From a phage: a DNA stretch of 44,317 bases. The stretch's first letter is position 1; the number at the start of each line of letters is the position of its first letter. The stretch is taken from sequence record PX907402.1. One strand, written 5' to 3'. The notes under the pieces were generated by a model, which had not been told where the DNA came from, did no database searches, and saw only the letters and a list, made by a program, of their open reading frames with translations. Both the position numbers and the translations under genes were made by a program. Positions 3,678 to 32,420 of this stretch are shown piece after piece.

Positions 3678-4778
3678 TTAAGACGCGGTAGTCGCCGTCA
3701 GCGTAACCAGTACGCCAGCGGTTTCCTTGATGTGACGGGTAGGCACTGCCTGCGCAGCCTGGATTTTACGACGGCCTTTAGTATCGCCGTCACCAACCGC
3801 GCCAACATCCTGCACGGTTGCCGGTGCGTTGTCTACCTGGCCATGGTCCAGTTCCCAGTTATCCTTAGTGGTGATATCGTCCAGTTTGAACGAGCGTACA
3901 CCTTCGATCGGGGTGCGAGCGGACGCCTTCAGTCGATAGCCTTTAACAGCCACGTTAAAGTCGAACTCGCCCTGCCACCAGCGCTCAATGTTCTCGTTAC
4001 CGCCTTTTTCCTGCGCCAGCATATCAAGGCCGTTGGTGGTAACTGCAACCGCGCCAGGGACCAGGCCCAGCATTTTACCCGCGCCCATCGCGTCAGCCGC
4101 GGCATCGGAGATAATGAAACGGCGACCCAGGCCGTCGCCCATTACCTGCAGATCGCCGATCGCGAATACCTGCTCGGCAGATGGGAGCGCCTGGTATGCG
4201 ATGAAGTTTGCCCAGGTAACGCCGTCCATAAACCAGGATTTAATCAAAGACGCCTGATCGCCGAACTTGGAAGCTGCCAGCGGGAAGTCTGCCAGGGTCG
4301 GGAAGGTACGACCACCAACGCCGTCAACGCGCGCCGGTTGGGTGTATTTTGCCGCTTCGTTGCTTTCGATCGCTGCTTTACTTGCGCCAATACCAGCCTT
4401 CAGGTAATGCAGCATAATCGCTTGAGTAGCCTGTGCCGCAATCTCCGCCGCAACGCTGTTAACGTTGGTTTCAATCTTAGCCATCATGGCCTTAGTGATT
4501 GCTACCGGACCCACTTTCGCGGAAAGGTTAACCGAGTTGGTCAGCATACGCGCCAGCACTTTTGCTGTCGCCGGAGTACCGACGGGGGCATAGGCGTTAC
4601 GGTCGGTAACGAGGTTGGCGATCAAGCCTACGGACATTTTTTCTACAACGTCCTTCAGCACTTCACCCGTGCCGAGAACAACAGCGCCGTTAGCGGCAGC
4701 GTTGAACACGTTCAGGTTGTCGGGGATCATTTGCGTAACCGCGGTGACGAGTTTACGCTGGAACACTGTTAAAGACAT
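3678..4778 (-). CDS. Major capsid protein
   Basis: 366 aa ORF after scaffold gene, RBS aaagga, followed by terminator; size and synteny. Confidence 0.75.
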   Translation of the reverse strand: MSLTVFQRKLVTAVTQMIPDNLNVFNAAANGAVVLGTGEVLKDVVEKMSVGLIANLVTDRNAYAPVGTPATAKVLARMLTNSVNLSAKVGPVAITKAMMAKIETNVNSVAAEIAAQATQAIMLHYLKAGIGASKAAIESNEAAKYTQPARVDGVGGRTFPTLADFPLAASKFGDQASLIKSWFMDGVTWANFIAYQALPSAEQVFAIGDLQVMGDGLGRRFIISDAAADAMGAGKMLGLVPGAVAVTTNGLDMLAQEKGGNENIERWWQGEFDFNVAVKGYRLKASARTPIEGVRSFKLDDITTKDNWELDHGQVDNAPATVQDVGAVGDGDTKGRRKIQAAQAVPTRHIKETAGVLVTLTATTAS

Positions 4779-4875: not shown

Positions 4876-5580
4876 TTACTCGTCGTCGCCCATTTTAGCG
4901 ATGATATCCCCTGCCTGTTTCGTCAAGTCAGCGATACCGAAGCTGTGGCCCATAGTGATTTTCGACTTCACATCTTCGACAACCTGCGTCGGTTTGCTAG
5001 GAGCGCCGCCTGCTGGCGTGCCAGCCAGGACGGATGCAAAATCGGCGTTATTACGGAACTCTTTTTCCAGATCTTCCATAGTCAGCGCGGACGGTTTGCC
5101 ATCCTGCAAGACACGCACTTTCAAGCTGCCGTCTTCGCCGTCTTCCAGCGTCAGGCGGTCCATTACGTGGCGTTGCATGATGCCCGCATTCTTACCGAAT
5201 AGCTTCGATGCCAGGTCTTTGGCAGCGCTGCCGATGGTTAGATCGTGGATCTGCTTGCGGTAGGCTTCGATTTTTCCCGCTGTGTCTGCTTCGTGTTTCG
5301 CAAACTTATCTTTCCAGGACTTGTCGATCGCTTCGAGGTCGCCATTTTTGCGCGCGGCGGCTTCCTCTTTCTCTTTCGCAAGGCGCTCAGCTTCGGCGCG
5401 GCGTTCAGCTTCTGCTTTCTTCTCGCTCACCAGCTTCGCGTTGTTGTCTTTCAGACCCTTGATTTCCGCCTGTACTTCTTCTGCGGTCATGAAAGTTGAT
5501 TTATACCCGTCGCCATCGGCAACAAAAAGCGCCTTCATACCTTCCGGCAACGCGTCATATTCTGCTTTAGTAAGTTTCAT
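4876..5580 (-). CDS. Scaffolding protein
   Basis: ATG at 5580 after aggggga RBS; A/E/K-rich coiled-coil-like 234 aa protein immediately upstream of major capsid. Confidence 0.7.
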   Translation of the reverse strand: MKLTKAEYDALPEGMKALFVADGDGYKSTFMTAEEVQAEIKGLKDNNAKLVSEKKAEAERRAEAERLAKEKEEAAARKNGDLEAIDKSWKDKFAKHEADTAGKIEAYRKQIHDLTIGSAAKDLASKLFGKNAGIMQRHVMDRLTLEDGEDGSLKVRVLQDGKPSALTMEDLEKEFRNNADFASVLAGTPAGGAPSKPTQVVEDVKSKITMGHSFGIADLTKQAGDIIAKMGDDE

Positions 5581-5635
5581 GCTATCCCCCTGGGATTGTG
5601 GCAGAGCAGGCCACCCGCTCGACTTCACGCTTCTA

Positions 5636-5663
5636 ATATTATCAGCGATAAAAATAATCGCAA
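5636..5663 (-). promoter_or_regulatory. Candidate sigma70-like promoter for scaffold/capsid genes
   Basis: Minus strand TTGCGA-16 bp-TAATAT upstream of scaffold start. Confidence 0.3.
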
Positions 5664-5670
5664 AATTCGC

Positions 5671-5709
5671 TTGCAATCCTCGTATTGGTTGCACTATATT
5701 GGTTGCACT
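5671..5709 (+). promoter_or_regulatory. Candidate promoter for DnaN-like gene with two ATTGGTTGCAC direct repeats
   Basis: TTGCAA (5671-5676), 18 bp spacer, TATATT (5695-5700); motif copies at 5684-5694 and 5698-5708. Confidence 0.45.
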
Positions 5710-5729
5710 CCAACAACGAGGAAATGACA

Positions 5730-6242
5730 ATGATTAAAGTTAACTATGCTGATCTTAAAGCCGCTATGATGTGCGCCGCAACTAATGACGTGCGATACTA
5801 TCTGAACGGTGTATTTTTCGACGAGAAAGGATTCATTGTGGCCACCGACGGTCATCGCTTGTTCTGCGGGTCAGCGGTTGTTCCCGAAGGTGAAAGTAAA
5901 ATAGTAGCAATTAAAGGCCGCTTACCTACTAAATTCGAATACTGCAACATAGACGGCACATCCGCTGCGTTCTTTGATAGTAAAGACGTATTAATCGGTA
6001 CCATACCCGTAGAGATCGTAGACGGCCGATTCCCTGACTGGCGTAGATTTACGTCTTTTGACCGCGCTAAAGTGGAGGCTATAGGGTTTGCCGGGGCATA
6101 CCTGTCCGACGCCTGCAAAATTGCTAAATTGTTCGACCGTAAGTTTGATAGCTTAAAACTGGAATTTCAAGGAGTAGACAAGGCGACACGTGTGCTGTTC
6201 AAAGGCGGTGCCTTCCTTGTTATCATGCCGATGCGTTTGTAG
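5730..6242 (+). CDS. Truncated beta sliding clamp (DnaN) homologue, about 170 aa
   Basis: Contains DVRYYLNG, ATDGHRL, VDGRFPDWRR and C-terminal VIMPMRL, which I recall as hallmark segments of bacterial DnaN domain II and C-terminus; own promoter, RBS gagga, flanked by terminator; opposite strand to surrounding head genes. Confidence 0.7.
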   Translation: MIKVNYADLKAAMMCAATNDVRYYLNGVFFDEKGFIVATDGHRLFCGSAVVPEGESKIVAIKGRLPTKFEYCNIDGTSAAFFDSKDVLIGTIPVEIVDGRFPDWRRFTSFDRAKVEAIGFAGAYLSDACKIAKLFDRKFDSLKLEFQGVDKATRVLFKGGAFLVIMPMRL

Positions 6243-6246
6243 CTAA

Positions 6247-6283
6247 CAAAAAGGGGGCCATCACGGCCCTCGAATTATTTTTT
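6247..6283. terminator. Bidirectional intrinsic terminator
   Basis: gggcc-atcac-ggccc hairpin with A-run upstream and T-run downstream; overlaps stop of lipoprotein ORF. Confidence 0.5.
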
Positions 6284-6491
6284 GCAACTCCAGCACTTGC
6301 GCCCTTAGCTTAGCACCACACTCCATATTTTTAACATCAACCAGCAAGTCTTCGTCTGGATCTGCCGAGGCATTCTCAAATGTGCAAGGAGGTCTATAGA
6401 CCGACTCGGTTAGCGGCGTCGATGGCACGTTGCTTGATCCGCACGCGCTCATCATCAAAACGGCAATCAGTACGGTTAGGACGCGTAACAT
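6261..6491 (-). CDS. Outer-membrane lipoprotein, putative o-spanin (Rz1-like)
   Basis: Signal peptide with lipobox LMMSAC-G, 76 aa, ATG after aagagg RBS, embedded in alternate frame of overlapping TM/coiled-coil ORF. Confidence 0.45.
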   Translation of the reverse strand: MLRVLTVLIAVLMMSACGSSNVPSTPLTESVYRPPCTFENASADPDEDLLVDVKNMECGAKLRAQVLELQKIIRGP

Positions 6492-6702
6492 ATTTCACAA
6501 CCTCTTTCGTGATAGTCCTGTATTCCACATCGCGGGCCTGTTCTGCCTGCACCGACCCCTCGACGACCTTAGTTTGCTGCCGTTGGGCTTTCGCTTGCGC
6601 TTCTTGCGCCGCTCTCGCCTCAACGCCAGCGCGGTAGGAATCACCCAGCCAGAAGCCAACCGCCAGGCCGATAACCAACCCGATCGCTGCGTATTTAATC
6701 AC
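6394..6702 (-). CDS. Putative i-spanin (Rz-like); start uncertain (GTG 6702 or TTG 6732)
   Basis: N-terminal TM segment IKYAAIGLVIGLAVGFWLG followed by A/Q/E-rich coiled coil; overlaps lipoprotein ORF. Confidence 0.4.
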   Translation of the reverse strand: MIKYAAIGLVIGLAVGFWLGDSYRAGVEARAAQEAQAKAQRQQTKVVEGSVQAEQARDVEYRTITKEVVKYVTRPNRTDCRFDDERVRIKQRAIDAANRVGL

Positions 6703-7798
6703 GCCATAACCCCCGGTTTTTAAGCTGTGCAATAGTCATTAGCTCACCAGCATCGGTAAACATTTTCGGCACCTTCACGCCGCGCATAATCTGGTCCGCG
6801 CGCTGCACCCCGTATAATTCTTCCAGGATATGGCGCGGCTGGCGCTGCACCCATGAGAAGAAATCAGTTTGCGCGTCGACCTGCTCACTTAGCAATCGGC
6901 CCGCGTCAGCCTTCAGTGCCGGACGCTTACCACTGGGCCAATCTCCCATACCTTTGACTTTCCACGTCTCCGTCGAACGGCAGCAATAATGCAGCTTGCC
7001 CGGACCAGCGCCATATTGTGACCCAGCCACCATTTTCCCGCCGCGCTTTCCTTTGGTGTCGGGAGTAACATCAACCGGATAAAACAGGCGATCGCGTAGC
7101 TGGCACATGGGAGAAGTATGAGTGTCCAATGTAGATAACCATTGGCGACCTTCGAGAATATCGTCATTAGCTTTTACCATTAATTCTCGGGCTGTCGCCG
7201 CATAGTGGTTGACTGCGGACTTAACAACGCTCGAGATAGCTTGCGCACTACGACCACCTAGCGCGCGCCTCACGTCCGCGATAATTTCCATCGTTGGCTT
7301 GCCCTGGATGAATCCCGCTCGCACCTGGTTACCGATCTGCGTCCTGGTCCACTCAGAAAGTGAGTCAGGCCATTGCATCATAGTATTACCCTGGAACGGG
7401 TTTTTCATAGCCGTCGCTGCGATCTGCGCACCGGTCACTACGCCAACCACCTCGATCGCAGGTACGGCGACCACCGGCTGGATCGCTGCCGTTAATGTGT
7501 CGGTGAGATAATCAGCCTCCGTGTCGGCGAACTCCTGAAGGCTTTCAGCCAACGCCTTAAACTCGGTGCGCAATTCTGATTTAACGGTCTTGTCGATTTG
7601 CGTTAGCAGGGTGGAAAGTGCCCTGTTATTCATTGACGATTTGCCATCAAGCAACTCGGTCAGCTTTCCCAGTAATGTGGGCCGGAACTTCTCCCACATG
7701 GACAGCACCCGTCGCGCCTGGTCATTGCTCAGGCGCTGGGTGAAGATGTGACGGCGAATCATTCGATCCGCCATATATTGATTAATTGTCTTCGCCAT
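6695..7798 (-). CDS. Head morphogenesis protein (SPP1 gp7 / Mu F-like)
   Basis: 367 aa directly downstream of portal; segment WLSTLDTHTSPMCQLRDRLFY resembles family signature; synteny. Confidence 0.65.
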   Translation of the reverse strand: MAKTINQYMADRMIRRHIFTQRLSNDQARRVLSMWEKFRPTLLGKLTELLDGKSSMNNRALSTLLTQIDKTVKSELRTEFKALAESLQEFADTEADYLTDTLTAAIQPVVAVPAIEVVGVVTGAQIAATAMKNPFQGNTMMQWPDSLSEWTRTQIGNQVRAGFIQGKPTMEIIADVRRALGGRSAQAISSVVKSAVNHYAATARELMVKANDDILEGRQWLSTLDTHTSPMCQLRDRLFYPVDVTPDTKGKRGGKMVAGSQYGAGPGKLHYCCRSTETWKVKGMGDWPSGKRPALKADAGRLLSEQVDAQTDFFSWVQRQPRHILEELYGVQRADQIMRGVKVPKMFTDAGELMTIAQLKNRGLWRD

Positions 7799-9302
7799 TG
7801 TCCGCTACCTTGTCCGGGTCTTCTTCGGTAGATTCTACCGCATCCGGGGACATTTGAGGCAATGGATTCTGATTTCGCAATTCGTCTTCCACCTGCTCAA
7901 CGGTTTGCGAGTCATCAATGACGCCCTGGGCCATCATCCACTTGATAAAGTCCGCCAGACGGACCGTACCGGTCTGCACACCAGCCATCATTGCGGTCAT
8001 AAGCTGTGCGTCAACCGTGATTTCGGTGTAGAACTTATTCAGCGTTACGCGTTGATCTGCGGTGTCGCCCGTGAACAGCTTGACGATTTGCAGCGCACGG
8101 TTGAAAGCCTTCTCGACGTTACCGGCAATCAGTGACAGGATACTGTTATCAGTCTGCGCATCGTAGGCCGCTTCAGTTGCCGTCTTAGGTGCGGTCCCCT
8201 TCTCGACCAGGGCCGCGCCCAGTTTAGCCATTTGCAACTCGCGTCGCTCACACAGCGCAACCGACAGGTTTCTCTCCTCCGCCTGAAGCAGTTTAGCGTC
8301 CATGTTCTGGCCCAGGATAACGCCCTTAGTTGCCCCGAGCGCGATGCCACCCTTCAGGTTTTTATCCGCCCATGATTGGGTCAGACCGGTCGCAATGAGT
8401 GTAGGTTGGCCCACAATGTGCGCAATCTCGGCGACGTCTGCTTCGGCGTTGTAGTGCTTAATGTTGATGGATGCAATATCCGCCAGCGGTGCGGCGTCCG
8501 GCGTCGCGTTGTTGTCCACAGCACCACACCAGCAAAATGGCAGTTGAGTAAGCGCATTACCGGCGGCATCCACCAGCGGCACTAGGTCGGTGCGGGTGAA
8601 GCCACGCGGCAAGTCCATTTGCACTTCGGACGTGTCCGCGTTGTAAAACCAGCGGCGGGCGTGTGCCGCACCGTTAATCATGCGAAGCTCGGTCCAGATC
8701 GTAACTTCGTGGTTTGCGAAGTCGTCCGGGTCTTCGGTGCTGATTTCGTCCGTTTCCTTCAGCACAATTAGTGTGTCGACGCCGTGGGTCTGCCGCCAGT
8801 TGATGATCTGTTCTGCCGTGTACAGGCGGATAAGCGGGCGGTGTGACGCCATCTCGGCGGCGGTCTGCGGCACTACATTACCCCGTTCATCAAAATGCGC
8901 CTGGCGGTCATAGTCCACCATAAAGCCTGCGCGGCCCGATTGCAGCACTTCCGACATAGCGCCGCGCAGTAGTTGCGCCAGTGGCATCCCGCTGCCGTCT
9001 ACGTCATCAATCAGGTCAGCCATTGCCCCGGAAAGGTCCAGACTCACCGGTTTGGCGAAGGCCACGCCTAAAAGGGCATTCAGTGTGCGGGCGGTGGCGT
9101 TCAGGAAGACAGCACGTTGCTTGTACGCCTTATACCGCGCCCGTGCTTTCGGGTCAGTATTGTCGCCACTGGCGGGATGAGGCAGGTACAAGGGGCCGCA
9201 CGCCTTCACTGCGCGCTCCCCTGCTACGCAGTCACGGATCATTTTCCACTCTGGCGCTATGCGCGCATAGAGCGGGTGCTGGTTGTCAACGTTAACGGTC
9301 AT
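7782..9302 (-). CDS. Portal protein
   Basis: 506 aa ORF immediately downstream of large terminase; acidic C-terminus. Confidence 0.8.
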   Translation of the reverse strand: MTVNVDNQHPLYARIAPEWKMIRDCVAGERAVKACGPLYLPHPASGDNTDPKARARYKAYKQRAVFLNATARTLNALLGVAFAKPVSLDLSGAMADLIDDVDGSGMPLAQLLRGAMSEVLQSGRAGFMVDYDRQAHFDERGNVVPQTAAEMASHRPLIRLYTAEQIINWRQTHGVDTLIVLKETDEISTEDPDDFANHEVTIWTELRMINGAAHARRWFYNADTSEVQMDLPRGFTRTDLVPLVDAAGNALTQLPFCWCGAVDNNATPDAAPLADIASINIKHYNAEADVAEIAHIVGQPTLIATGLTQSWADKNLKGGIALGATKGVILGQNMDAKLLQAEERNLSVALCERRELQMAKLGAALVEKGTAPKTATEAAYDAQTDNSILSLIAGNVEKAFNRALQIVKLFTGDTADQRVTLNKFYTEITVDAQLMTAMMAGVQTGTVRLADFIKWMMAQGVIDDSQTVEQVEDELRNQNPLPQMSPDAVESTEEDPDKVADNGEDN

Positions 9303-9313
9303 GGTCGGTTTCC

Positions 9314-10699
9314 TTAGTAGAAATCTACGGTAGGAACAACGGCGATTGGACGAATCACAGGGAACAAGTGCGCAATAGGGTAGCCCGCGGCATCGTTCAT
9401 GTGGTCCACACCGGCGGTTTTATCCGGCTCGCCTTTCTTCAGGTCGTAAACCTGCTGTTCCAGACATTTCGCTAGTGTAGGGCATTTATCCAGGTTGACA
9501 AAATACTGGCGCACGCCCTTCGAGTTGCACATCATCGTATTCATCGCGATCAATCGGTCTTTCACAGGCGGGTTAACACTGCCATACTCCACCTCGAAGC
9601 CAGCGTCTTCCAGTTGTGCGATATCGGACGACGACGCGTTGACCGTCTTGCGTGATCTGCCGCTGCTATCAGGGTAAACGACAACACGACCGGCAGCACA
9701 ATGATCGGGGTAGCGCTCCTCGATCGCCTCAATCATAGCCGGGGTGTCAAACAGGTCCACAAATTCATCCACCGCGTGAATCTCGTCGCGGAACTCCTTG
9801 TTCTCGGTGACTCGCTGCCGTCTGACGTACACAACCGCCGCCATCTTCGTGACGTTAAAGTCCATACCGATAATCAGCGTGTCGTCCGGCTTCACTTCTT
9901 CGGTGCTGGCGTTCTCCTCGCGGTTGAACATCTTGTACACCGCGCCCGACGTAAGGTTAACAAACAGGCCGTTCAGGTACGCGTCGATCAGGTTAGCCGG
10001 GTACTGACTGCGCAGCGTGTCGATAAAGTCTGCCGGTAAATGGTGGTTGTCCGTGGTCTTCGCCCGGATCAGGCGCTTCTGGCTATCCTTCTCCACCTCG
10101 AAAATTTGGTACATCGCCCGGTAGCCTTCAGGCGTTGACACGATGACGAACTGGCGGACGAAGCCAGCACGCAGACGACCGAGCAATTTGTGATATGCCG
10201 CCAGCGCGACGTCTTGCTTCGTAGTGTCAAACTCGTCGGCAACAATCCACGCGGCGTTGATACCGATCAGGCGGGTATAGTTCTCCATTGACTCACAGAT
10301 AACGCGAGTCCATTTGCCTTTCACCAGCACGTTGTAAATCTTGTCCTGCTTATTGAACTTCCACCGGAAGCCAGCCTCGTCGAATGCCTTCTCCAGTTCC
10401 GGATACATGATTTTAACCAGGAGTGGAATAGTCGGTTCGGTCACGATGCCGTCATAACCAGGGTTAAGTGTCAGAAGCTGGATGACCTTACGTGCGGCAA
10501 CCCATGACTTGCCACCGCCGAAGCCGGAACACAGGCCGAGGATTTTAGTCTTCGTGTCGCGCAGTAGTTCAACCTGGTGCGGCAAGCAATCAGGCTGGTA
10601 AAGGCGGACGGCCTGCGCAACGCGTGTCGGGCGTGGTGGTCGGTTGCGCTTTGCGATCGTGCGCTCCAGTGCGCGGTGTTCTGCCGCATAGTTACGCAT
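9314..10699 (-). CDS. Terminase large subunit
   Basis: Walker A-like GFGGGKSW and Walker B-like IVADEFD; 461 aa; upstream of portal. Confidence 0.85.
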   Translation of the reverse strand: MRNYAAEHRALERTIAKRNRPPRPTRVAQAVRLYQPDCLPHQVELLRDTKTKILGLCSGFGGGKSWVAARKVIQLLTLNPGYDGIVTEPTIPLLVKIMYPELEKAFDEAGFRWKFNKQDKIYNVLVKGKWTRVICESMENYTRLIGINAAWIVADEFDTTKQDVALAAYHKLLGRLRAGFVRQFVIVSTPEGYRAMYQIFEVEKDSQKRLIRAKTTDNHHLPADFIDTLRSQYPANLIDAYLNGLFVNLTSGAVYKMFNREENASTEEVKPDDTLIIGMDFNVTKMAAVVYVRRQRVTENKEFRDEIHAVDEFVDLFDTPAMIEAIEERYPDHCAAGRVVVYPDSSGRSRKTVNASSSDIAQLEDAGFEVEYGSVNPPVKDRLIAMNTMMCNSKGVRQYFVNLDKCPTLAKCLEQQVYDLKKGEPDKTAGVDHMNDAAGYPIAHLFPVIRPIAVVPTVDFY

Positions 10700-11250
10700 T
10701 ATTCACCCTGGCCTTTGCCGGAAGGTTCGACAACTACGTCGCCGTTATCATCTTCGTCGTCATCCAGCGGTACATCGTCGCGGACGCCGTGGTTTGCTTT
10801 AAGCAGGAATGTGGCGAAGCCCGCAGCGATGGTTACGCCGCCAGCTTCCATCAGGAAAGTTTTCTGCAGTTCCATAGCGTCAGCCATCGCCTCGGCGAAC
10901 TCCTCATGCGCACGCGCCCAGCGATACAGGCAAGCTACGCCCACGCCGATTTCAGCGGCAAATCTGCCGAAGGTTGGCATTTTGTTGCGGGGGATTACTT
11001 GCGCAGCGCCTTTATCGGAGTAGTTGACCTGCCAGGCGTCGGCGTCGGCAAAATAGCGGCGAAGCTGGTCGCAGTAGACGGATCGGTAGTCAGTAGGTCG
11101 CCCACATTTGCCGCCTTTACGGCGCTTTCCGTACTCGATTTCAGGTCCTAGATTGGTATGTTCTGTTTGCTCGCCTGGTTTACGGCGCGGGGTTACTGCC
11201 ACTCGTCCGTCCAGTTTGGCGCGTCGGCCCTTAACTTTGATTTCTGCCAT
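10699..11250 (-). CDS. Terminase small subunit (putative)
   Basis: Basic N-terminus, acidic C-terminus, stop overlaps TerL start; start chosen at ATG 11250. Confidence 0.5.
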   Translation of the reverse strand: MAEIKVKGRRAKLDGRVAVTPRRKPGEQTEHTNLGPEIEYGKRRKGGKCGRPTDYRSVYCDQLRRYFADADAWQVNYSDKGAAQVIPRNKMPTFGRFAAEIGVGVACLYRWARAHEEFAEAMADAMELQKTFLMEAGGVTIAAGFATFLLKANHGVRDDVPLDDDEDDNGDVVVEPSGKGQGE

Positions 11251-11367
11251 GATATAAGCCCTTTTGTTCATATGCGCCGACCATCGGCGACATAGGAGAC
11301 GGCCCTGCCATCTAATGGGGATTATAACAGGCACAAAAAAGCCCACCAAATCGGCAGGCTGGGAGGC

Positions 11368-11580
11368 TTAAACGGCGCGCCCGTAGTATCGGGTTAACAT
11401 GCTTTGTACTTCGCTTATCGCGCCTTCTGTGTAGCGTATTTGCGACAGTATTTCGATCCTCTCATCCATCGACATTCCGACTGCCGCTGCCGTTCGTTCG
11501 AATCGGCGCAAGCCTTCGAGTTGTTTGCGTAGTTCTTTCAGGCGGGTGGCCTGCGTGCTCATGAATACTTGTCTGATCAT
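11368..11580 (-). CDS. Hypothetical protein
   Basis: 70 aa ORF, ATGA overlap with upstream gene. Confidence 0.4.
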   Translation of the reverse strand: MIRQVFMSTQATRLKELRKQLEGLRRFERTAAAVGMSMDERIEILSQIRYTEGAISEVQSMLTRYYGRAV

Positions 11581-12719
11581 TTCAACATTTCCGGGCTAAT
11601 GGTTAAGCGCGCTACTTCGCCGTAGTTGGCGCTGTAGGTAATGACGTTGGCACTGCGACCTGACATCCAACCGCCACGACTGGCGTAGGCGTCTTTCGCC
11701 GCGAGCGTCCGGTGCTGTTCAACAATCATGTTGCGAGACTCGACAATCTTCTGGTGGTGCAAGTGGCCTACGTGCGCGTAGCTGTATTCGCTAGACCCGA
11801 ACGCCTGTCTGAATTTAGCGATCATAACCTGCTCGATAGCATCGAATCGCGCTTTGTGCCCGTGGTGGAAGAATAGCGTGGTCTTTCCGTGCTGCACCAT
11901 TTTGTAAACGTCCGGGGACGTATCCACATCGACGCGCGGCTCGTTCTCATACAGGGTATTGAACATCTCAGCAAGCCAAATCATACCCGATTCGTCATGA
12001 TTACCCTGGACGATTAGCAGTTTGACTTTGTGGTGTTTTTGCAACGCCAAGTCTACCACGTTGCGCACCATGCGAATCATATAGCGGACCAACTTCTGGT
12101 ATCGTGTGTCGGCGTCCAGTACGTGACCGCTTGCTGGTGTGACGGCATCAAGGCTATCAAAGTGCGCCATATCGCCGAGGATATTGATCACGGCAGTGCC
12201 TGCGTCTGGAGCGCGTGCGAAGGCTTCGACAAACCAGCGGTAGAACAGGTCTTCGGCGATCGCCATATCCCAGTCTTCGCCAGTCTCCTCCCCCCATGCC
12301 AGCATACCCAGGTGGAAGTCGGACACCGTGTACAGGTTGAGCAAGTCGAGCGCCTGGATCGGTACTGGCGGGGCGCTTACCGGTGCTGCCGGTGTGATTT
12401 CGCTGTTCAAACCCTCGACAACAGCGCGCATAGCTTCGAGTTGGCGCTCCTTGTCCTGCTCAGTGATAACCCACGACATGACCTCTTCGCCATTGCCGCG
12501 CACCAGGGCCGATACGCGCTTAACCCCAAAGCCATCGGCAACGCGCTTGCGGATTACGGCATCGTTGCCGTGTCCAATGCCTTTTTTCGATAGGCGGGCT
12601 TTCCGCATATAAACATTGCGTAGGGCAATCCCGTATTTCTTCGCAATATCTTTAACCGTAGTCCCTGCCTGAATTTCTGCGATCAATTGCTCATCGGTAA
12701 TTTTAGTTTGCGGGTGCAT
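11577..12719 (-). CDS. Calcineurin-like metallophosphoesterase with N-terminal HTH domain
   Basis: Motifs DFHLG, GDMAHF, GNHD, GHLHH typical of the metallophosphatase fold; N-terminal TVKDIAKKYGIALRNVYMRKARL HTH-like. Confidence 0.65.
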   Translation of the reverse strand: MHPQTKITDEQLIAEIQAGTTVKDIAKKYGIALRNVYMRKARLSKKGIGHGNDAVIRKRVADGFGVKRVSALVRGNGEEVMSWVITEQDKERQLEAMRAVVEGLNSEITPAAPVSAPPVPIQALDLLNLYTVSDFHLGMLAWGEETGEDWDMAIAEDLFYRWFVEAFARAPDAGTAVINILGDMAHFDSLDAVTPASGHVLDADTRYQKLVRYMIRMVRNVVDLALQKHHKVKLLIVQGNHDESGMIWLAEMFNTLYENEPRVDVDTSPDVYKMVQHGKTTLFFHHGHKARFDAIEQVMIAKFRQAFGSSEYSYAHVGHLHHQKIVESRNMIVEQHRTLAAKDAYASRGGWMSGRSANVITYSANYGEVARLTISPEMLK

Positions 12720-16134: not shown

Positions 16135-16168
16135 AATATATCAAGGTGCCGGGGTGAATGCAACCAAT
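16135..16168 (-). promoter_or_regulatory. Candidate sigma70-like promoter with ATTGGTTGCAT motif
   Basis: Minus strand TTGCAT (16158-16163), 17 bp spacer, TATATT (16135-16140), then ggttgcgc. Confidence 0.45.
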
Positions 16169-16639: not shown

Positions 16640-18904
16640 TTAATCTTTTAAGTCGTCATCGGTTGCAGAAAGCGTGATGGGTATATTCGTTTTTATGACG
16701 ATATTCGACGACCCATAGATGGCTCCGGTGTGCGGATCGGTATAAAAACCGAGTACGCCGCGCTCGACCATATCGTCGATTGCCTTCGTCGATGTGCCAC
16801 CTTTTGCCAATCCTGCCTGGCGGACAATTGCCGATTTACTGAATCCGGTATGGTCCGGGTTATCTTCCATCAGTTTTTCCAGGGCCGCGTAAAGTACCTT
16901 TTCTTTTTCGGTGCGCGGTCCGGCGGTGTTCTCTTCCTTAACTGCGGCTTTTCCTGCGGCCTTCGCCTGTTCTATAGCGAACGGTGCCAGGGCGACCGGT
17001 ACGAGGTACAGAGTCTCGTCGCGTGGCGTGGAGGCAATTGGCTTGACGTCCCAACCGGCAACCACATCGCCGAAGTCCGGCCCGGTGCTGGTGGACTGGT
17101 GGGCTTCGAACGCTTCGGACTTGCGGAGATCCACCTTAACCTTGCACTTGAGCAGGACGAAGCCGCGCGGCGCTTGCTTAATGCCGTTACGTGCCTTCTC
17201 ATGATACAGGTTCAATTGTCCGGGCTGGTTGTCGTCCGGTTGCTCCAGGAAGAACGCGGAATCGACAGCACCATGCAGCGCGCCGGACCCGCGGGGGGAT
17301 CTGCTGCCGTTTGCACCTTTCGCCGGGTGGTGAATGACGCCCGCACTGCCGCCGGTATTTTCCGCGATGGCCTTCAGCGCTTTGACCACTTCACCCATAT
17401 CGCTGGCGTTGTTCTCGTCGAACGGTTTAGCATCGGCGGACCGCAACGCAACAGTCTGGTTGAGTGAGTCGAACGCCACCAGGCCAACCGGTTCGCCGTT
17501 AGCGGTGCGGTTGATGAAGCTGATAACTTCGCGCAAGCCTGATTTGCTGGTGATATCCCAGCCGCGTGACTGCAGATCGATAATGTGCAGCTTGTCGAGG
17601 TCGTGCTCGTATTTGATCTGCAATGCTTCTTTGCGCTGGTTAGAGGCTTCACCACCTTCCGCATCGAAATAGAAGCAATGAGACTGGACGACCTTCGCAC
17701 CGCCGAACGGAATACCGGCGGCAACCGCGCCCATCTGCCCCAGCACATAGAAAGACTTACCAATGTTCGACTCGCCCGCCATATACCAGGTCGATTTGAA
17801 GTTAATCAACCCCTCGATAATCGGGTCGTGCTTACTGAACAGCGCAACCGGCTCGTTATCCAGATCCGCATCGGTGCACACGCCGTATTCTTCGCCGTCG
17901 CCAACCGCATCAACAATATGTTCATATAAGGATTCGACTTCTTCGTCGTCCAGCCCCGGAAGGATGGCGGCGATTTGCTTACGGGACATATTGTGTGGCT
18001 CGACGTTCAGGTGGTCCGGGATCCCGATAAGACGTAGCGCCAGGTGCTGGTGCCTATTCAGTTCCGAGCAACACTCGTTGCCTGTGTGCATACACTTGAA
18101 ACGGATCTCGCCATCCTTGACCATGATAGCCGTCGACCCTTCGCCGCTGTGCAGATGTTCGTTCGGGCACGGCACTTCATAACCACGACCGGACGACAGC
18201 GGTTCGAATCCTGCCTGGAAGCACCAATCCAGAATACCGTCCGCCACGCCGTCATCGCCCTGGGTTAGTTCGCGGCGTACTTCCTCTTTCTCCACTCCCA
18301 GCTTATCAGCCAGGCGAAGCAGACGACGGACGCGGGCACGTTTGCCGTAGTGACACTTAACAACCGATTGCTGGTGTGGCAGGTACATAAGGCGGTTTGT
18401 GTCTTTCGTGCAATCATCGAAGTCCACATCTGACAGGCCCAGTTGGTGTAATAGTGCATACTGTACGCGGCCCAGGTCTTCCGCCGGTACAGGATTATCG
18501 GTGAGCACCAGGAAACGAGCGCAACGCGTGCCGCCTTTCAGCGGGTGGCGGTCGCCGGTTGTGGTGTGGAATACATGTTCCAGTCCCGCGTCGATGAATG
18601 CCTTACGGCAGCGGCGTAAGGTGCGGGTGTCGGTACGGTCAATATCGAAGAACAGGATCGAGCGGTCCACCGCACTGGTCTTACGACGCAATCCGTCACA
18701 GGTATACGCCACGATGCCATCGGCCTTACGCTTGCGGCGCGCATACTCGGCTTTATCTTCCGTCCTGTTGATATGCACCGAGGATATTTCTTTCGCATCA
18801 TTGATAAATTCGAAGAACTCTTCGGTAGTCATCTGGAAGTTTTCCGCCCTGGCTTTTTCGCCTTTTTTAGCGGGTCGTGTTACAGCGAATTTAATTAAGC
18901 TCAT
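16640..18904 (-). CDS. Primase-helicase (prim-pol-like N-terminus, Cys-rich finger, RecA/DnaB-like ATPase)
   Basis: ILFFDIDRTD acidic motif, CPNEHLH...CMHTGNEC cysteine cluster, Walker A GESNIGKS and Walker B LVAFDSL. Confidence 0.75.
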   Translation of the reverse strand: MSLIKFAVTRPAKKGEKARAENFQMTTEEFFEFINDAKEISSVHINRTEDKAEYARRKRKADGIVAYTCDGLRRKTSAVDRSILFFDIDRTDTRTLRRCRKAFIDAGLEHVFHTTTGDRHPLKGGTRCARFLVLTDNPVPAEDLGRVQYALLHQLGLSDVDFDDCTKDTNRLMYLPHQQSVVKCHYGKRARVRRLLRLADKLGVEKEEVRRELTQGDDGVADGILDWCFQAGFEPLSSGRGYEVPCPNEHLHSGEGSTAIMVKDGEIRFKCMHTGNECCSELNRHQHLALRLIGIPDHLNVEPHNMSRKQIAAILPGLDDEEVESLYEHIVDAVGDGEEYGVCTDADLDNEPVALFSKHDPIIEGLINFKSTWYMAGESNIGKSFYVLGQMGAVAAGIPFGGAKVVQSHCFYFDAEGGEASNQRKEALQIKYEHDLDKLHIIDLQSRGWDITSKSGLREVISFINRTANGEPVGLVAFDSLNQTVALRSADAKPFDENNASDMGEVVKALKAIAENTGGSAGVIHHPAKGANGSRSPRGSGALHGAVDSAFFLEQPDDNQPGQLNLYHEKARNGIKQAPRGFVLLKCKVKVDLRKSEAFEAHQSTSTGPDFGDVVAGWDVKPIASTPRDETLYLVPVALAPFAIEQAKAAGKAAVKEENTAGPRTEKEKVLYAALEKLMEDNPDHTGFSKSAIVRQAGLAKGGTSTKAIDDMVERGVLGFYTDPHTGAIYGSSNIVIKTNIPITLSATDDDLKD

Positions 18905-23157: not shown

Positions 23158-23328
23158 ATGCGTATTAAAGCCAGCGAAGTAAAAGTCGGAATGCAAGTAT
23201 GGTCCAAGCTACTGGGGGAATATTTCACAGTTGCCGAGATTCGCAACAACGGCGAAGAGATCGCCCTGTCAGACGGCATCTTCTCCATGATCGGCAGCGC
23301 TGACGCCGTAGTGAGGATAAAGCAATGA
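23158..23328 (+). CDS. Small hypothetical protein (56 aa)
   Basis: ORF ending in ATGA overlap with DNA polymerase start. Confidence 0.3.
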   Translation: MRIKASEVKVGMQVWSKLLGEYFTVAEIRNNGEEIALSDGIFSMIGSADAVVRIKQ

Positions 23329-25616
23329 AAGACTTCGAACGTCTGTTTCTCGACACCGAGACATTTAGCGGGGTGGACCTGAAGAAAGTAGGGGCGTACG
23401 CCTACGCAGAGCACCCAACCACCGAGATTATGATTTGCACCTACGCCATCGACGAAGGCCGCGTGCAGACATGGGATGCCACTGAATCCCCAACAATGCC
23501 GCGTGAACTGCGCAAGGCGCTCCGTCAGGTATCCCGCAAGAAAGCAAAAATCGTGATGGCTAACGGCCTCCTGTTTGACCGCTTGGTCATCCGCGAGAAG
23601 TGGGGTATTGACCTGCCGGTAGACCAGATCGAAGATACCATGATTATGGCCTTTCGCCACGCGCTGCCCGGTAGCCTCGATATGCAGTGCCAGGTGCTGG
23701 GCGTTGACGCAGAGCACGCGAAAGATAAGGCAGGCAAGGCGCTGATTAAACGATTCTGTAAGCCGACCCCTAAGACTTACAAAATCCGCCGCTACACTCG
23801 CGAGACTCACCCAGAAGAGTGGGCCAAATTTCTGCGCTATGCCGCGCTGGATATTATCGCAATGCGTGAAGTCTACTGGCGCATACCGGACTGGGGCAAT
23901 ACTCCGAAGGAAGATGAAATCCTGCTTATCGACCAGTTGATTAACGACCGCGGCTTCTATGTGGACGTTGACCTGGCGAACGCCGCGATCAAAGCGGTGC
24001 AGGCGCATAAGGAAGAATTGAAGGAAGAAGCCTGGGAGCGATTTGGTGGTAAACTTACAGGCAATGACTTCCTGCCAATCCTGCGTGATATCGCCCCGGC
24101 GTTCACAATCCACAACGCGCAGAAATCCACACTTAACGACCTGCTTGAAGACCCGGACTTCCCCGACGAAGGCAAAGCGCTTATCGAAATGCGCCTCGGA
24201 GCGTCATCAACGGCATCGACTAAGTACAATCCGCTCGTTAACGGCCTATCCGCCGATGGTCGCCGCCGTGGGTGTCTTCAGTATGGCGGCGCAAAGCGCA
24301 CGCTACGCTGGGCTGGTAAAGGCTTCCAGCCTCAAAACCTGGCACGCGGCGAGTATAGCGACGACCACGAAGGGAAGATTAAGCGCCGCGAAGGCGAGAG
24401 CGACGTCTCGTTTTGGGTGCGGTCGCACATGCTCACCAACGGCATCAAATCCCTGTTACGCGGGACAGCGCACTGGGCGTATGACATATCGAAGCTAACC
24501 GCCTCGACCGTTCGCGGGTGCATTATTCCGGCGAAGGGTAAGAAGTTTGTCGTAGCGGACTACTCCAACGTGGAAGGGCGCGGCCTTGCCTGGATCGCTG
24601 GCGAGAAAACCGCGCTAATGGTGTTTAAGGCCGGGCGCGATATCTATTGCGAGACTGCCGGTAAGATGTTCGGCCTTGACCCGGATTACATCAAAGCCAA
24701 CCGCAAAGACTTGCGACAGATCGGTAAGGCGTGTGAGTTGGGACTGGGCTATGGCGGCGGCGTCGCGGCGTTCTTGCAGTTCGCTAAAAACCTGGGACTC
24801 GACCTTTACACTATGGCGGACGTGATGAAAGGCACGTTCCCGGATCACATTTGGGCGGCGGCGAAGCGCGGTTATGAGTACGCCCGCATTAACGAAGCGA
24901 AACGCCCACCGAAGCCGGGCAAGAAGGACGAGCGCCCGACTTACATACTGCCGAAAAACGTATGGCTTACTTGTGACGCGATCAAACGTATGTGGCGTGA
25001 GGCGCACCCGAAGACGGTAGCCTTTTGGGCCGAGCTTGAGGACGCGGTGTTGTGTGCAATCCGCAATCCGGGCAAAGCATACTGGGCTGGTGCGAACGTT
25101 CGCCCGGACGGTAGAAAAGCGCTCAAGATTGTCCGTACGAAGGCGAAGCACGACCCAACCTTTGACGAGGAGCGCGACGACCCGAACGCCGCGGGGTGGT
25201 GGTTGAAAATTGAGTTGCCGTCGGGGCGCATCATGAGCTACCCCGGCATAGCGCTGTCTGTCACTACCGAGATTGACGAAGACACCGGCAAGAAGCGCAC
25301 CAGCACACGCATTAAATATCAGGGCGAGAATCAGACGACGCGCCAGTGGGGATTCCAGTATACCTACGGCGGCAAACTGACGGAGAACATCGTACAGGCG
25401 TTGTGCCGCGATATTCTCGCATGGTCCATGCCTGGCGTTGAAGCTGCGGGGTATAAAATCGTCCTGTCGGTGCATGATGAATTGATCACAGAAGTGCCGG
25501 ACACCGACGACTACACGACAGAGGAGCTTTGCGCGCTGATGTGCGACCTGCCTATTTGGGCGAAAGGCTTCCCACTTGCCGCCGAAGGCGATTGTATGTA
25601 TCGCTACCGCAAGTAG
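23325..25616 (+). CDS. DNA polymerase, family A (T7-like, with 3'-5' exonuclease domain)
   Basis: LFLDTETFSG exo motif; RQIGKACELGLGYGGG (motif B-like) and VLSVHDELITEV (motif C). Confidence 0.9.
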   Translation: MKDFERLFLDTETFSGVDLKKVGAYAYAEHPTTEIMICTYAIDEGRVQTWDATESPTMPRELRKALRQVSRKKAKIVMANGLLFDRLVIREKWGIDLPVDQIEDTMIMAFRHALPGSLDMQCQVLGVDAEHAKDKAGKALIKRFCKPTPKTYKIRRYTRETHPEEWAKFLRYAALDIIAMREVYWRIPDWGNTPKEDEILLIDQLINDRGFYVDVDLANAAIKAVQAHKEELKEEAWERFGGKLTGNDFLPILRDIAPAFTIHNAQKSTLNDLLEDPDFPDEGKALIEMRLGASSTASTKYNPLVNGLSADGRRRGCLQYGGAKRTLRWAGKGFQPQNLARGEYSDDHEGKIKRREGESDVSFWVRSHMLTNGIKSLLRGTAHWAYDISKLTASTVRGCIIPAKGKKFVVADYSNVEGRGLAWIAGEKTALMVFKAGRDIYCETAGKMFGLDPDYIKANRKDLRQIGKACELGLGYGGGVAAFLQFAKNLGLDLYTMADVMKGTFPDHIWAAAKRGYEYARINEAKRPPKPGKKDERPTYILPKNVWLTCDAIKRMWREAHPKTVAFWAELEDAVLCAIRNPGKAYWAGANVRPDGRKALKIVRTKAKHDPTFDEERDDPNAAGWWLKIELPSGRIMSYPGIALSVTTEIDEDTGKKRTSTRIKYQGENQTTRQWGFQYTYGGKLTENIVQALCRDILAWSMPGVEAAGYKIVLSVHDELITEVPDTDDYTTEELCALMCDLPIWAKGFPLAAEGDCMYRYRK

Positions 25617-29477: not shown

Positions 29478-29511
29478 ATTGGTTGCATAATCATATTGGT
29501 TGCATTATATT
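29478..29511 (+). promoter_or_regulatory. Candidate promoter with two ATTGGTTGCAT direct repeats
   Basis: Motif copies 29478-29488 and 29495-29505; TTGCAT (29483-29488), 17 bp spacer, TATATT (29506-29511). Confidence 0.5.
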
Positions 29512-30018: not shown

Positions 30019-30490
30019 GCAAAAAGATAGCTGGCGCACGCCGCCAGCTTTATTTAAACCGCTTCGTCGGAAGTACCGATTCCGTTACGATATGGCGGCA
30101 AGCGATGCAAACCACCTGCTCCCGCGTTACTTCACGGCGGAACACAGCGCGCTTGATGTGGACTGGGCAGAGTTGAAAGGGTGGAAGTGGTGCAATCCGC
30201 CGTATTCCGATCCGCTGCCGTGGGTAGAGTGCGCAGCGCACGGACGCCGGACTGTCATGCTACTGAATCAGGACACGTCGACGAAGTGGGCGAAGCTGGC
30301 CCGGAAGACTGCAAACCTGATAATTCTTCTGGACTGGCGGATTAGATTCATTCACGCCGTCACCGGCGAAGTCGGGCCGAGCAATAACAAGTGCCAGCAA
30401 TTGATAATCTTTGACGAAGCGCCACCCATCGGCAGCGCACAAATTGAAATAATGAGCGAAGGAGAACTCCTTGAATATCTTAATCGTTGA
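30005..30490 (+). CDS. DNA N6-adenine methyltransferase (phage Dam-like)
   Basis: WRTPPALF...DMAASDANHLLPRYFT...WCNPPYS (NPPY catalytic motif). Confidence 0.7.
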   Translation: MTENEQKDSWRTPPALFKPLRRKYRFRYDMAASDANHLLPRYFTAEHSALDVDWAELKGWKWCNPPYSDPLPWVECAAHGRRTVMLLNQDTSTKWAKLARKTANLIILLDWRIRFIHAVTGEVGPSNNKCQQLIIFDEAPPIGSAQIEIMSEGELLEYLNR

Positions 30491-30695
30491 CCGCAGTATG
30501 CGCGTCGTGGACGAAATTGTTAAACGCTACCAAATTAACCCGAGGGAGAACAAAGTACGGCGGGTCAGCCGCCCGGAGCAATTGCTCGGCCTGGACCTTA
30601 CCGGCTGGCTTGTAATGACGGCCCGCTATCATCTTGTGTGTGACACGTTTTCCGCCCGTATTGTTCGTACGAATCTTATCGAGGAGTTGAAATGA
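30471..30695 (+). CDS. Hypothetical protein (start uncertain: TTG 30471 or ATG 30498)
   Basis: Small ORF with gaaggag RBS before TTG. Confidence 0.3.
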   Translation: MNILIVDRSMRVVDEIVKRYQINPRENKVRRVSRPEQLLGLDLTGWLVMTARYHLVCDTFSARIVRTNLIEELK

Positions 30696-31162
30696 AACTA
30701 CTGATTTGTGATCTGGATGGCGTTATTAACGGTTCAAGCGACGCGCGTGCCGACCTGGTGCCGGGGATAAAAACGAAATCAACCTTTTGGGCAAAGTGGC
30801 ACAAAGCGCACGTCCGCGAAGACCTGAACATGGATATGCTGCCGCTGCTGCGCATGTACAAAGAGCAAGGCTTCGAGATAGCGTATCTGACAAACCGGCA
30901 GCGCGAATGTTGGGACACCACCGCCGAGCAACTGAAGGTCTTCCCTGTAGGTCGGTTGTTTATGCGCCACATGTTGGACGACACCCCACCGCCTGAGTTT
31001 AAGGCGTGCGCCGTGTTCAAAATGGTCTGCTACGCGGACGTGTCTGAACTTGTCATCATTGAGGACTGCCCGAAGAACATCGCGGCAATTCGTCGGGCGT
31101 GCAGCGATCTGGTCCCGAAAATTTACGCAATTAACGTTGCAAAATTCACTTGCAACCAATAG
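30692..31162 (+). CDS. HAD-superfamily phosphatase / nucleotidase-like
   Basis: N-terminal LICDLDGVI (DxDG motif I); later YLTNR and IIEDC. Confidence 0.55.
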   Translation: MKLLICDLDGVINGSSDARADLVPGIKTKSTFWAKWHKAHVREDLNMDMLPLLRMYKEQGFEIAYLTNRQRECWDTTAEQLKVFPVGRLFMRHMLDDTPPPEFKACAVFKMVCYADVSELVIIEDCPKNIAAIRRACSDLVPKIYAINVAKFTCNQ

Positions 31163-31179
31163 GTTGGTTGCATTATATT
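31150..31179 (+). promoter_or_regulatory. Candidate promoter containing perfect palindrome TGCAACCAAT-AGG-TTGGTTGCA
   Basis: TTGCAA (31150-31155), 18 bp spacer, TATATT (31174-31179). Confidence 0.5.
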
Positions 31180-31221
31180 TAACTCGTCGGGGCAATACGG
31201 CCCCGCTAAAGGAAAAACATC

Positions 31222-31776
31222 ATGAAAGCATACGAATACTGCAAAAACGCCGCCACCACTATGGAACAGCGCGGGAAAGAGAATGGCTATGACAACGCGA
31301 AAGAAGAACGCAGTGCTAAGCAGATCGCTGCCGTGTTTAACGCTCTTACCGGTCGCGACCTAACCGAGCAAGAAGCCTGGACCTTCCTGATTTGCCTGAA
31401 GCTGGTGCGCCAGCACCGTAAGCACCAGGAAGACAATATCGTCGACCTGGTAGCGTATGCCGCATTGCTGGGCGAGTCTTACATGACCGTGCATGACGAG
31501 ATTCAGGTCGATACAACGGCAGAACAGTTTGAAAGCCTCAAAGGTCTGTCCGTGCGTCTTGATGGCGAGATTAATGCGTATAACAGTGCGATGCGCGTTG
31601 CCGAGGAGACTGTGGCCTCGTTCGGCAAGACGGTGAAGGCCCACGATTTTGGGGTTGTAGCGCAAGACGTCCAGCCTATGGTCGTGCTCACCGGCGAAGA
31701 CGGATCGAAAATCTGCATGACGCAGGAAGATTTCCGTAACATGGAAAAAACACTGGTGACTGGCGCACTTAAATAA
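31222..31776 (+). CDS. Hypothetical protein
   Basis: 184 aa ORF; RBS aaaggaaaaa. Confidence 0.5.
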   Translation: MKAYEYCKNAATTMEQRGKENGYDNAKEERSAKQIAAVFNALTGRDLTEQEAWTFLICLKLVRQHRKHQEDNIVDLVAYAALLGESYMTVHDEIQVDTTAEQFESLKGLSVRLDGEINAYNSAMRVAEETVASFGKTVKAHDFGVVAQDVQPMVVLTGEDGSKICMTQEDFRNMEKTLVTGALK

Positions 31777-31818
31777 TTCTAATAGCGGGCTTCGGCCCGC
31801 ATCAATGAGGGCCACACA

Positions 31819-32394: not shown

Positions 32395-32414
32395 AAAAGG
32401 GGCCATACGGCCCC
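32393..32414. terminator. Bidirectional terminator between convergent plus and minus units
   Basis: ggggcc-atac-ggcccc with A-run upstream and T-rich downstream. Confidence 0.55.
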
Positions 32415-32420
32415 TTCTCG

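Follow-up and report, generated by a model that had tools for sequence, protein, structure and literature searches.

A truncated beta sliding clamp encoded in an accessory cassette of a Dhillonvirus genome

Locus and gene

This study concerns a small gene in the phage DNA of sequence record PX907402.1, a stretch of 44,317 nucleotides (nt) that is analysed here as a whole and called the window, with the focus on positions 5671-6283. In essence, the window represents the whole genome of a Dhillonvirus, and it is 97.6% identical to Sodalis phage SO-1 over the 1.3-kb region searched (window 5400-6700). The gene occupies 5730..6242 on the plus strand and encodes a protein of 170 amino acids (aa), referred to below as the mini clamp, which comprises domain II and the C-terminal half of domain III of the bacterial beta sliding clamp DnaN and ends in MPMRL. 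An earlier interpretation made from the letters alone (the sequence-only reading) had assigned this open reading frame (ORF) to a truncated DnaN, naming the stretches DVRYYLNG, ATDGHRL, VDGRFPDWRR and the terminal VIMPMRL. The ORF, its strand and its length were confirmed in the sequence, and every one of these motifs was found in its translation.

The ORF in its mechanical form begins at TTG 5685, and the ATG codons at 5724 and 5730 share its frame. Judged from the sequence, ATG 5730 is the best start codon, since a putative ribosome-binding site (RBS), GAGGA at 5718-5722 on the plus strand, lies 7 nt before it; earlier start codons are used for this gene in some database records. The predicted fold of the 5' untranslated region was not better than that of shuffled sequence (z -0.25).

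Relationship to DnaN

Profile searches, the predicted structure and Foldseek comparisons agree that the mini clamp is a truncated homologue of DnaN. The search against DnaN that the sequence-only reading had called for gave matches to 33 beta-clamp sequences when phmmer was run against PDB sequences, with query residues 10-110 aligned to E. coli beta 140-250 (E~1e-7) and the C-terminal VIMPMRL aligned to YVVMPMRL of the beta clamp. Curated single-family models match the protein weakly: the central-domain model PF02767 of Pfam gave an E-value of 5e-5 and 23.9 bits, below its gathering score of 27, and TIGR00663 gave 24.7 bits against a cut-off of 137.65. The family phrog_3007 was matched at E 2.4e-55, with residues 1-170 placed on profile positions 2-186 of 190. 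A family profile built from an alignment of 87 relatives matched E. coli beta with 114.7 bits in two stretches (beta 139-292 and 312-366). The structure prediction, likewise asked for beforehand, gave a confident clamp fold: the AlphaFold2 model obtained from the 87-relative alignment had a pLDDT of 95 and a pTM of 0.90, and 155 of its residues superpose on a solved clamp at 2.2 A. In Foldseek searches of the PDB, the best 50 matches were beta clamps throughout, with TMq up to 0.69 and about 260 alignment columns per 170 query residues. The relationship to DnaN is thus far beyond chance resemblance. Recent capture of a host dnaN gene is unlikely, as identity over domain II is just 35%.

A different label, RusA-like Holliday junction resolvase, sits on phrog_3007, and through re-annotation in RefSeq it has passed to copies of the window gene and to phage records in large number, including NC_013600.1, NC_016566.1 and NC_054645.1. 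No Pfam RusA match was obtained at E<=1 and the fold is that of a clamp; the label is a propagated misannotation.

Domain architecture

In the E. coli clamp, the sheet that forms the partner-binding cleft crosses the boundary between domains II and III, being built from the first half of the former and the second half of the latter. The dimer interface is formed by F106 and L108 of domain I and by I272, L273 and E298-I305 in the first half of domain III. The predicted model of the mini clamp contains three beta-alpha-beta-beta-beta motifs, equivalent to 1.5 clamp domains, the second of which has a loop in place of the helix. By sequence alignment, the first two motifs match domain II (residues 131-246 or so of beta) and the third matches the C-terminal half of domain III, with IGF(N/A)xxYL aligned to beta 317-324 and MPMRL to beta 362-366. 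All of domain I and about 59 residues of domain III are missing. The sequence-only reading had described the protein as domain II plus the extreme C-terminus; the first part of this description stands, and the second was too narrow, as a whole beta-alpha-beta-beta-beta half of domain III is present. Its further point, that a protein of about half the clamp length cannot form a normal three-domain ring, agrees with the comparison of 170 aa with 366 and with the lack of domain I; a chain of about 366 aa with three clamp domains is not what this gene encodes.

The spacing between FPDW and MPxR is 67 aa in the window protein and 63-78 aa in every one of the 87 aligned relatives that has both motifs, as opposed to 120 aa in E. 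coli beta. The half-domain-III architecture is therefore not peculiar to the window phage.

For the residue-level comparison, a pairwise map was made with an E. coli beta sequence that has the right length and agrees with the phmmer alignments to PDB sequences. In this map, 22 of the 27 positions listed for the cleft have the residue of E. coli beta. The columns that are nearly invariant across the family (R22, Y23, Y24, L25, T39, D40, G41, H42, R43, P102, D103, R106, Y124, M166, P167 and R169) are these cleft residues. The retention of the partner-binding cleft, which had been asserted from the motifs, is thereby supported both in the window protein and across the family, and the hydrophobic peptide-binding cleft closed by MPMRL is present at the level of residues and fold. 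On the other side, nothing in the phage protein aligns with beta residues 272, 273 and 298-305. The phage protein thus keeps exactly the elements that build the cleft, together with the half-domain that completes domain II, and has dropped both sides of the ring-closing, head-to-tail dimer interface. With both interface halves absent, neither canonical ring closure nor entry into a host ring would be expected. The isoelectric point (pI) of the window protein is 8.6, compared with 5.25 for host beta; across the family the pI is mixed, with a median of 6.7.

Selection and family size

Pairwise ratios of nonsynonymous to synonymous substitution (dN/dS) among six Dhillonvirus orthologues range from 0.05 to 0.39, showing that the gene is under purifying selection and functional. 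The family is large. The family profile found at least 1,374 representatives (50% identity clusters) at E<=1e-30, and the best 150 of these are, without exception, 170-312 aa long. A relative is encoded on at least 474 IMG/VR contigs, and tblastn found one in 246 phage records, with Salmonella, Escherichia, Klebsiella, Burkholderia, Serratia, Vibrio and others as hosts. Many phage proteins of 163-250 aa in BFVD share the fold (TM 0.72-0.87). Mean column identity across the family is 21%.

Longer relatives mostly carry a tail after MPxR, which the subfamily of the window protein lacks. The tail ends in Ala-Ala-COOH (EAA, AAA, KAA, VAA or LAA) in 96 of 173 such relatives, resembling the C-terminal ssrA/ClpX degron, and a tryptophan, often as P-x-W, lies within 20 residues of MPxR in 111 of the 173. 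By analogy, the ssrA-like end could make the tailed relatives short-lived or, more radically, could pass bound clients to ClpXP.

Promoter class, repeats and terminator

Upstream of the mini clamp gene, a scan matched a promoter-like element at 5671..5700 (+), with a -35 hexamer TTGCAA (5671-5676), an 18-nt spacer and a -10 hexamer TATATT (5695-5700). This is the promoter that the sequence-only reading had described, and it is promoter-like by sequence; a single match equals the chance expectation of that scan. The pattern TTGCAW-N16-18-TATATT, in turn, has four matches in the window against 0.00 in 100 shuffles, at 5671-5700 (+), 16135-16163 (-), 29483-29511 (+) and 31150-31179 (+). The sister promoters precede a group of small genes, an operon that includes a Dam-like methyltransferase and a phosphatase, and two genes of unknown function. 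The promoter region is kept in six Dhillonviruses irrespective of the gene downstream.

The two repeats reported earlier are also present. They form a pair of direct TATTGGTTGCAC repeats at 5683..5708 (+), the first (5683-5694) lying in the spacer and abutting the -10 hexamer, and the second (5697-5708) overlapping the -10 hexamer and the likely start site. TATTGGTTGCAC has 12 matches with <=2 mismatches in the window versus 3.4 expected, and is a candidate operator or promoter-class motif. Its 8-mer core, TTGGTTGC, occurs 20 times versus 1.3 expected, mostly in pairs and in intergenic or promoter regions (5685, 5699, 16136, 16167, 16251, 16538, 16573, 16627, 19442, 22247, 22263, 26537, 29479, 29496, 31159, 31164 and 34036, and also 15421, 39499 and 42849). 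Several of these sites are GCGCATTGGTTGCC repeats in the repeat region after the helicase-primase gene ('region B' of SO-1). A copy of TTGGTTGCA lies in the spacer, abutting the -10 hexamer, in three of the four members of the promoter class, and the promoters at 5671 and 16135 share TATATTGGTTGC[AG]C[TA]CCAACA..GAGG ahead of the start codon. From its distribution, TTGGTTGC is probably an operator or promoter motif of a phage regulator, or an origin-associated site. An independent promoter of host type, as expected of a moron, is probably not what the gene has. Its promoter belongs to a four-member phage class with TTGGTTGC, which argues for phage-programmed expression of the mini clamp, apparently under the phage's own promoter/operator system and not under an unrelated host-type signal.

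Downstream, the bidirectional terminator that had been proposed was detected, as a candidate, on both strands: a GC-rich hairpin GGGGGCC-ATCAC-GGCCCTC at 6253..6271, followed by a T run at 6277-6282 on the plus strand and by CCTTTTTGTT on the minus strand. The predicted folding energy is -14.4 kcal/mol (z -3.4) on the plus strand and -11.9 kcal/mol on the minus strand, where the value is unremarkable (z -1.0), yet the U tract is better. If termination on the minus strand is efficient, the scaffold and capsid genes would need read-through or a separate promoter. A weak minus-strand promoter candidate, TTGCGA-16-TAATAT, lies at about 5635-5662 in the intergenic region 5581-5729.

Cassette between the scaffold and spanin genes

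The genes flanking the mini clamp are all on the minus strand, so that, as stated in the sequence-only reading, the gene runs against the late genes. On one side lie the genes of the scaffold (4876-5580) and the major capsid protein (3678-4778). On the other side follow o-spanin (6261-6491), with its stop codon (6261-6263) inside the terminator hairpin, i-spanin (about 6394-6732), head morphogenesis (6695-7798), portal (7782-9302) and large terminase (9314-10699). The two spanin genes (6261-6732, -) overlap and are placed within the head-assembly module, and the holin and endolysin genes are far away.

The slot between the scaffold and spanin genes has fixed ends and variable cargo. Promoter, both repeats and RBS are conserved whatever the cargo, and the cargo-specific sequence starts right after the RBS. 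The mini clamp is alone in the slot in the window phage, SO-1, TheodorHerzl and JLBYU27, and AV129 looks the same, judged from its match row only. In SECphi18 and most other genomes, the slot holds Nmad5 alone (254 aa, PF18757, E 7e-56). In phage rolling, which was read directly, Nmad5 is followed by the mini clamp, and WF5505 and EP23 appear to be of the same two-gene type from their two-piece matches and feature lists. The genome of rolling has a near-identical copy of the terminator hairpin after each of the two cargo genes; in the two-gene form, RBS (ACGAGGAAATGA) and hairpin are each duplicated. These duplications would be obvious substrates for deletions giving either one-gene form. The check for orthologues in related phages showed that, out of about 155 Dhillonvirus records, about 147 carry Nmad5 and 16 carry the mini clamp. 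No empty slot was seen among the genomes inspected; Nmad5, the mini clamp or both were always present. The term moron, used in the sequence-only reading, thus fits with respect to the promoter-like and terminator-like elements and the non-core nature of the gene, and fails with respect to absence from relatives with adjacent flanks, since the slot was filled in every genome inspected.

Nmad5 in this slot has been reported to be non-essential and toxic to clone, and its K296E mutation lets Dhillonviruses escape the Tmn defence system (PMC11846954). The cassette is therefore an accessory locus at the phage-host interface, as its Nmad5 cargo is the site of a Tmn-escape mutation. Papers on the genus describe lytic isolates; with Dhillonviruses being virulent, the logic of lysogenic conversion does not apply.

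Elsewhere in the window, the ORF of the A-family polymerase is uninterrupted (23325-25616, +; 763 aa). The corresponding SO-1 gene (30312-33500 in its record) is annotated with a group I intron carrying an HNH endonuclease, and this interruption is the probable source of most of the 852 bp by which the two genomes differ in length.

Genomic settings in other phages

The neighbourhoods of 72 loci from 21 sequence groups were clustered, with Pfam checks. On lambdoid contigs, the order is CI-Cro-CII, mini clamp, Rep O, DnaB; CII lies directly upstream of the mini clamp in 12 loci, and O and DnaB lie downstream in 11-12. A gene for a ParB-like helix-turn-helix protein is found upstream on the same strand in 23 of the 72 loci, for example in Skatevirus LPST10, and Serratia phage Eta has the order ParB-like, mini clamp, helicase. 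In the head module of Kagunavirus, the mini clamp forms a solitary cassette on the opposite strand, next to the spanin gene. A relative with 48% identity directly follows the CI-like repressor gene in Salmonella prophages and leads an operon with a PDDEXK nuclease, an Enc34-type SSB, Nmad5 (or SIR2_2) and an A-family polymerase; the Dhillonvirus replication module is of the same type. Two of these prophages are collinear, and have Nmad5 (11181-12662) in one and SIR2_2 (11120-11758) in the other just upstream of the polymerase, a site that is a further accessory hot spot within the replication module. Outside Dhillonvirus, the settings of the family usually point to early or replication operons.

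Function

Starting from the observed identity, architecture and cleft conservation of the protein, the purifying selection on its gene and the structure of its cassette, we tentatively favour the view that the mini clamp, as a clamp reduced to its cleft, is a soluble competitor, or sponge, of the host beta clamp. Peptide binding, a monomeric state, early timing and competition are what we infer for it. Transcription would start at the phage promoter, which belongs to a class shared with three other accessory or early operons, and would end at the hairpin. The product would fold as the same segment does in a real clamp and would need no clamp loader; no clamp-loader gene is annotated in related genomes. 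Its cleft would bind motifs of the QL[SD]LF type, that is, those of the alpha, epsilon and delta subunits of DNA polymerase (Pol) III, of Pol II, Pol IV and Pol V, and of Hda, MutS, MutL and ligase. Being monovalent, the mini clamp may soak up such clamp-binding proteins in solution early in infection. Host processes that depend on beta would then be blunted, either host replication and clamp loading, or SOS and translesion polymerases and mismatch repair, namely those that would otherwise interfere with the phage DNA. Meanwhile, the DNA of the phage would be copied by the PolA, helicases and SSB that it encodes itself.

The distribution of clamp-binding motifs bears on this proposal. A regular-expression scan of the window proteome found none at protein termini; the two matches elsewhere were QLNLY in the helicase-primase (residue 563) and QVELF, the latter in an ORF that is probably spurious. 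Across the 72 loci, clamp-binding-like motifs were not enriched near the mini clamp (2.4% of near genes versus 3.7% of far ones). As none of the neighbouring phage proteins looks like a dedicated partner, the clients probably come from the host, and host clients together with a polymerase of the phage's own favour a competitor. The QLNLY of the helicase-primase (16640-18904, -) resembles the clamp-binding motif QLNLF of UmuC, and is internal, not terminal.

Several points weigh against the sponge. Functional studies of short phage DnaN homologues were not found in the searchable literature. A stoichiometric sponge would have to be abundant. Lambdoid relatives that rely on host Pol III also carry the family, and as a blunt inhibitor of the Pol III-beta contact would harm them, the sponge would have to be selective or the role would depend on the lineage. 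The pI of 8.6 is compatible with direct DNA binding, too. The lists of the 27 cleft residues and of the dimer-interface residues are based on structures of E. coli beta. A selective version may be imagined, as speculation, in which the mini clamp would absorb monovalent clients such as SOS polymerases, UmuDC, Hda and the delta 'wrench', while the multivalent contacts of the Pol III holoenzyme would largely be spared. This would suit lambdoid carriers that are induced by SOS. It is a doubtful extension of the same idea that mini clamps as a whole form a large class of host-interactome sponges or adaptors that, in solution and with neither ring nor loader, use the single motif-binding sheet to change which proteins reach the host clamp during infection.

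A possible alternative, for which we see a modest chance, is that the mini clamp is an adaptor or recruiter: the cleft would hold a host client, and a second, lineage-specific surface would tether it to the phage replisome or origin. The clients might be the Pol III core or holoenzyme, Pol I, ligase or the clamp loader, and they would be delivered without a loaded ring. The recurrence of the gene in replication modules (CII-Rep O/DnaB, helicase/ParB-like and PDDEXK-SSB-PolA) is in keeping with such a role, and the need of lambdoid carriers for host Pol III suits recruitment better than inhibition; the extra C-terminal tails of many relatives might provide the second interaction surface. The window protein, however, has no tail, and the cleft is the sole part conserved family-wide, given a mean column identity of 21%. 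The gene is moreover dispensable in Dhillonvirus, where about 10% of genomes have it, and no co-varying partner was seen in the neighbourhoods examined.

The mini clamp could also be directed at host immunity. Toxins that target the clamp, such as SocB of Caulobacter, provide a precedent for a cleft mimic serving as an anti-defence or antidote decoy, which would absorb a host toxin or immune effector that acts on beta via a clamp-binding motif. The patchy distribution of the accessory cassette would agree with this, as would what is known of the alternative cargo Nmad5: the phage can do without it, cloning it is toxic, and the Tmn-escape mutation falls in it (PMC11846954). The SIR2_2 gene found at the Nmad5 position in a Salmonella prophage likewise suggests that these are hot spots of host conflict. 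PADLOC, on the other hand, gave no match for the mini clamp, nor for Nmad5. Anti-defence islands do not typically show the strong linkage to replication genes that is seen in other lineages. We know of no E. coli defence that acts through the clamp cleft, and regard a decoy as unlikely.

It is quite improbable that the mini clamp serves the phage A-family polymerase as a loader-independent processivity factor or accessory subunit, comparable to UL42 or UL44. The same PolA occurs without a mini clamp in about 90% of Dhillonviruses, no clamp-binding-like motif was found in the PolA of the window, and the loci examined in lambdoid carriers contain no phage polymerase. The mixed pI of the family (median 6.7) also speaks against this role.

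The sequence-only reading had further suggested that the fragment poisons the host clamp by forming a heterodimer with DnaN that breaks the ring. The two share the clamp fold, and a fragment of 1.5 domains leaves edges of its beta-sheets free and a half-domain face exposed. Nevertheless, both halves of the canonical dimer interface are missing (no domain I, and no counterparts of beta 272/273 and 298-305), and we disfavour poisoning as very improbable for this reason. The host dimer is also extremely stable, with a dissociation constant of the order of 10 pM according to the abstract of a bioRxiv preprint. Finally, a decaying, functionless remnant of a captured dnaN is scarcely credible and effectively refuted: the protein is shorter than any cellular clamp and falls under the Pfam and NCBIfam cut-offs, but selection (dN/dS 0.05-0.39), the 1,374 diverse clusters at E<=1e-30, the identical architecture of 87 aligned relatives, the confident AlphaFold2 model and the conserved promoter, RBS and terminator all contradict decay.

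Comparison with known systems and significance

The closest known case is gp07 of SO-1, which shares 98.8% identity with the window protein and differs from it in nothing material; its gene, too, lies between those of scaffold and spanin and has the same orientation. Its Dhillonvirus orthologues are found in EP23, rolling, TheodorHerzl/Bas14, AV129 and WF5505. The GenBank record of SO-1 describes gp07 as 'putative DNA polymerase III beta subunit; possible moron gene product', and many other records use 'DNA polymerase III beta subunit' or 'beta clamp domain-containing protein'. The idea of a truncated clamp, put forward in the sequence-only reading, was thus already on record; gene and label are known, and the existence of the gene would be no surprise to specialists. 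To our knowledge, what is new is the 1.5-domain architecture, the coincidence of the invariant residues with the cleft, the scale of the family, the logic of the cassette, the promoter class and the terminal Ala-Ala tails of relatives. The cleft of the beta clamp is a hub of bacterial replication, repair and mutagenesis and an antibiotic target. If the proposed function is true, a minimal soluble cleft would be a new type of phage tool for host takeover or counter-defence, and a ready-made reagent to probe or block the clamp interactome. As the gene itself is annotated already, the value of the case lies in the question of function for a very large family.

In comparison with E. coli beta (PDB 1MMI/2POL), which has 366 aa, three domains and a dimer interface, the phage protein of 170 aa is without domain I and the first half of domain III, and its pI is 8.6 as against 5.25. 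Another truncated form is beta*, reportedly an ultraviolet-inducible 26-kDa product of an internal dnaN start, described by Skaliter, Paz-Elizur, Livneh and co-workers in 1996. It is said to have been proposed as a ring of three two-domain subunits and to keep the whole of domain III. Both beta* and the phage protein are truncated N-terminally and begin near the start of domain II; unlike beta*, the phage protein does not have the half-domain needed for the ring interface. The herpesvirus factors UL42 and UL44 share the clamp fold and contact DNA directly, without closing into a ring. UL42, UL44, PF-8 and BMRF1 consist of two full domains with strongly basic DNA-binding faces and bind the C-terminus of their own polymerase, whereas no such motif was found in the polymerase of the window. 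Shorter phage homologues of polIII-beta have been reported by Kazlauskas and Venclovas (2011, NAR 39:8291; PMC3201878). The window protein belongs with these phrog_3007 proteins in both profile match and architecture: it matches the family profile end to end. As a point of difference from that report, no more than half of the third domain is present across the whole family described here.

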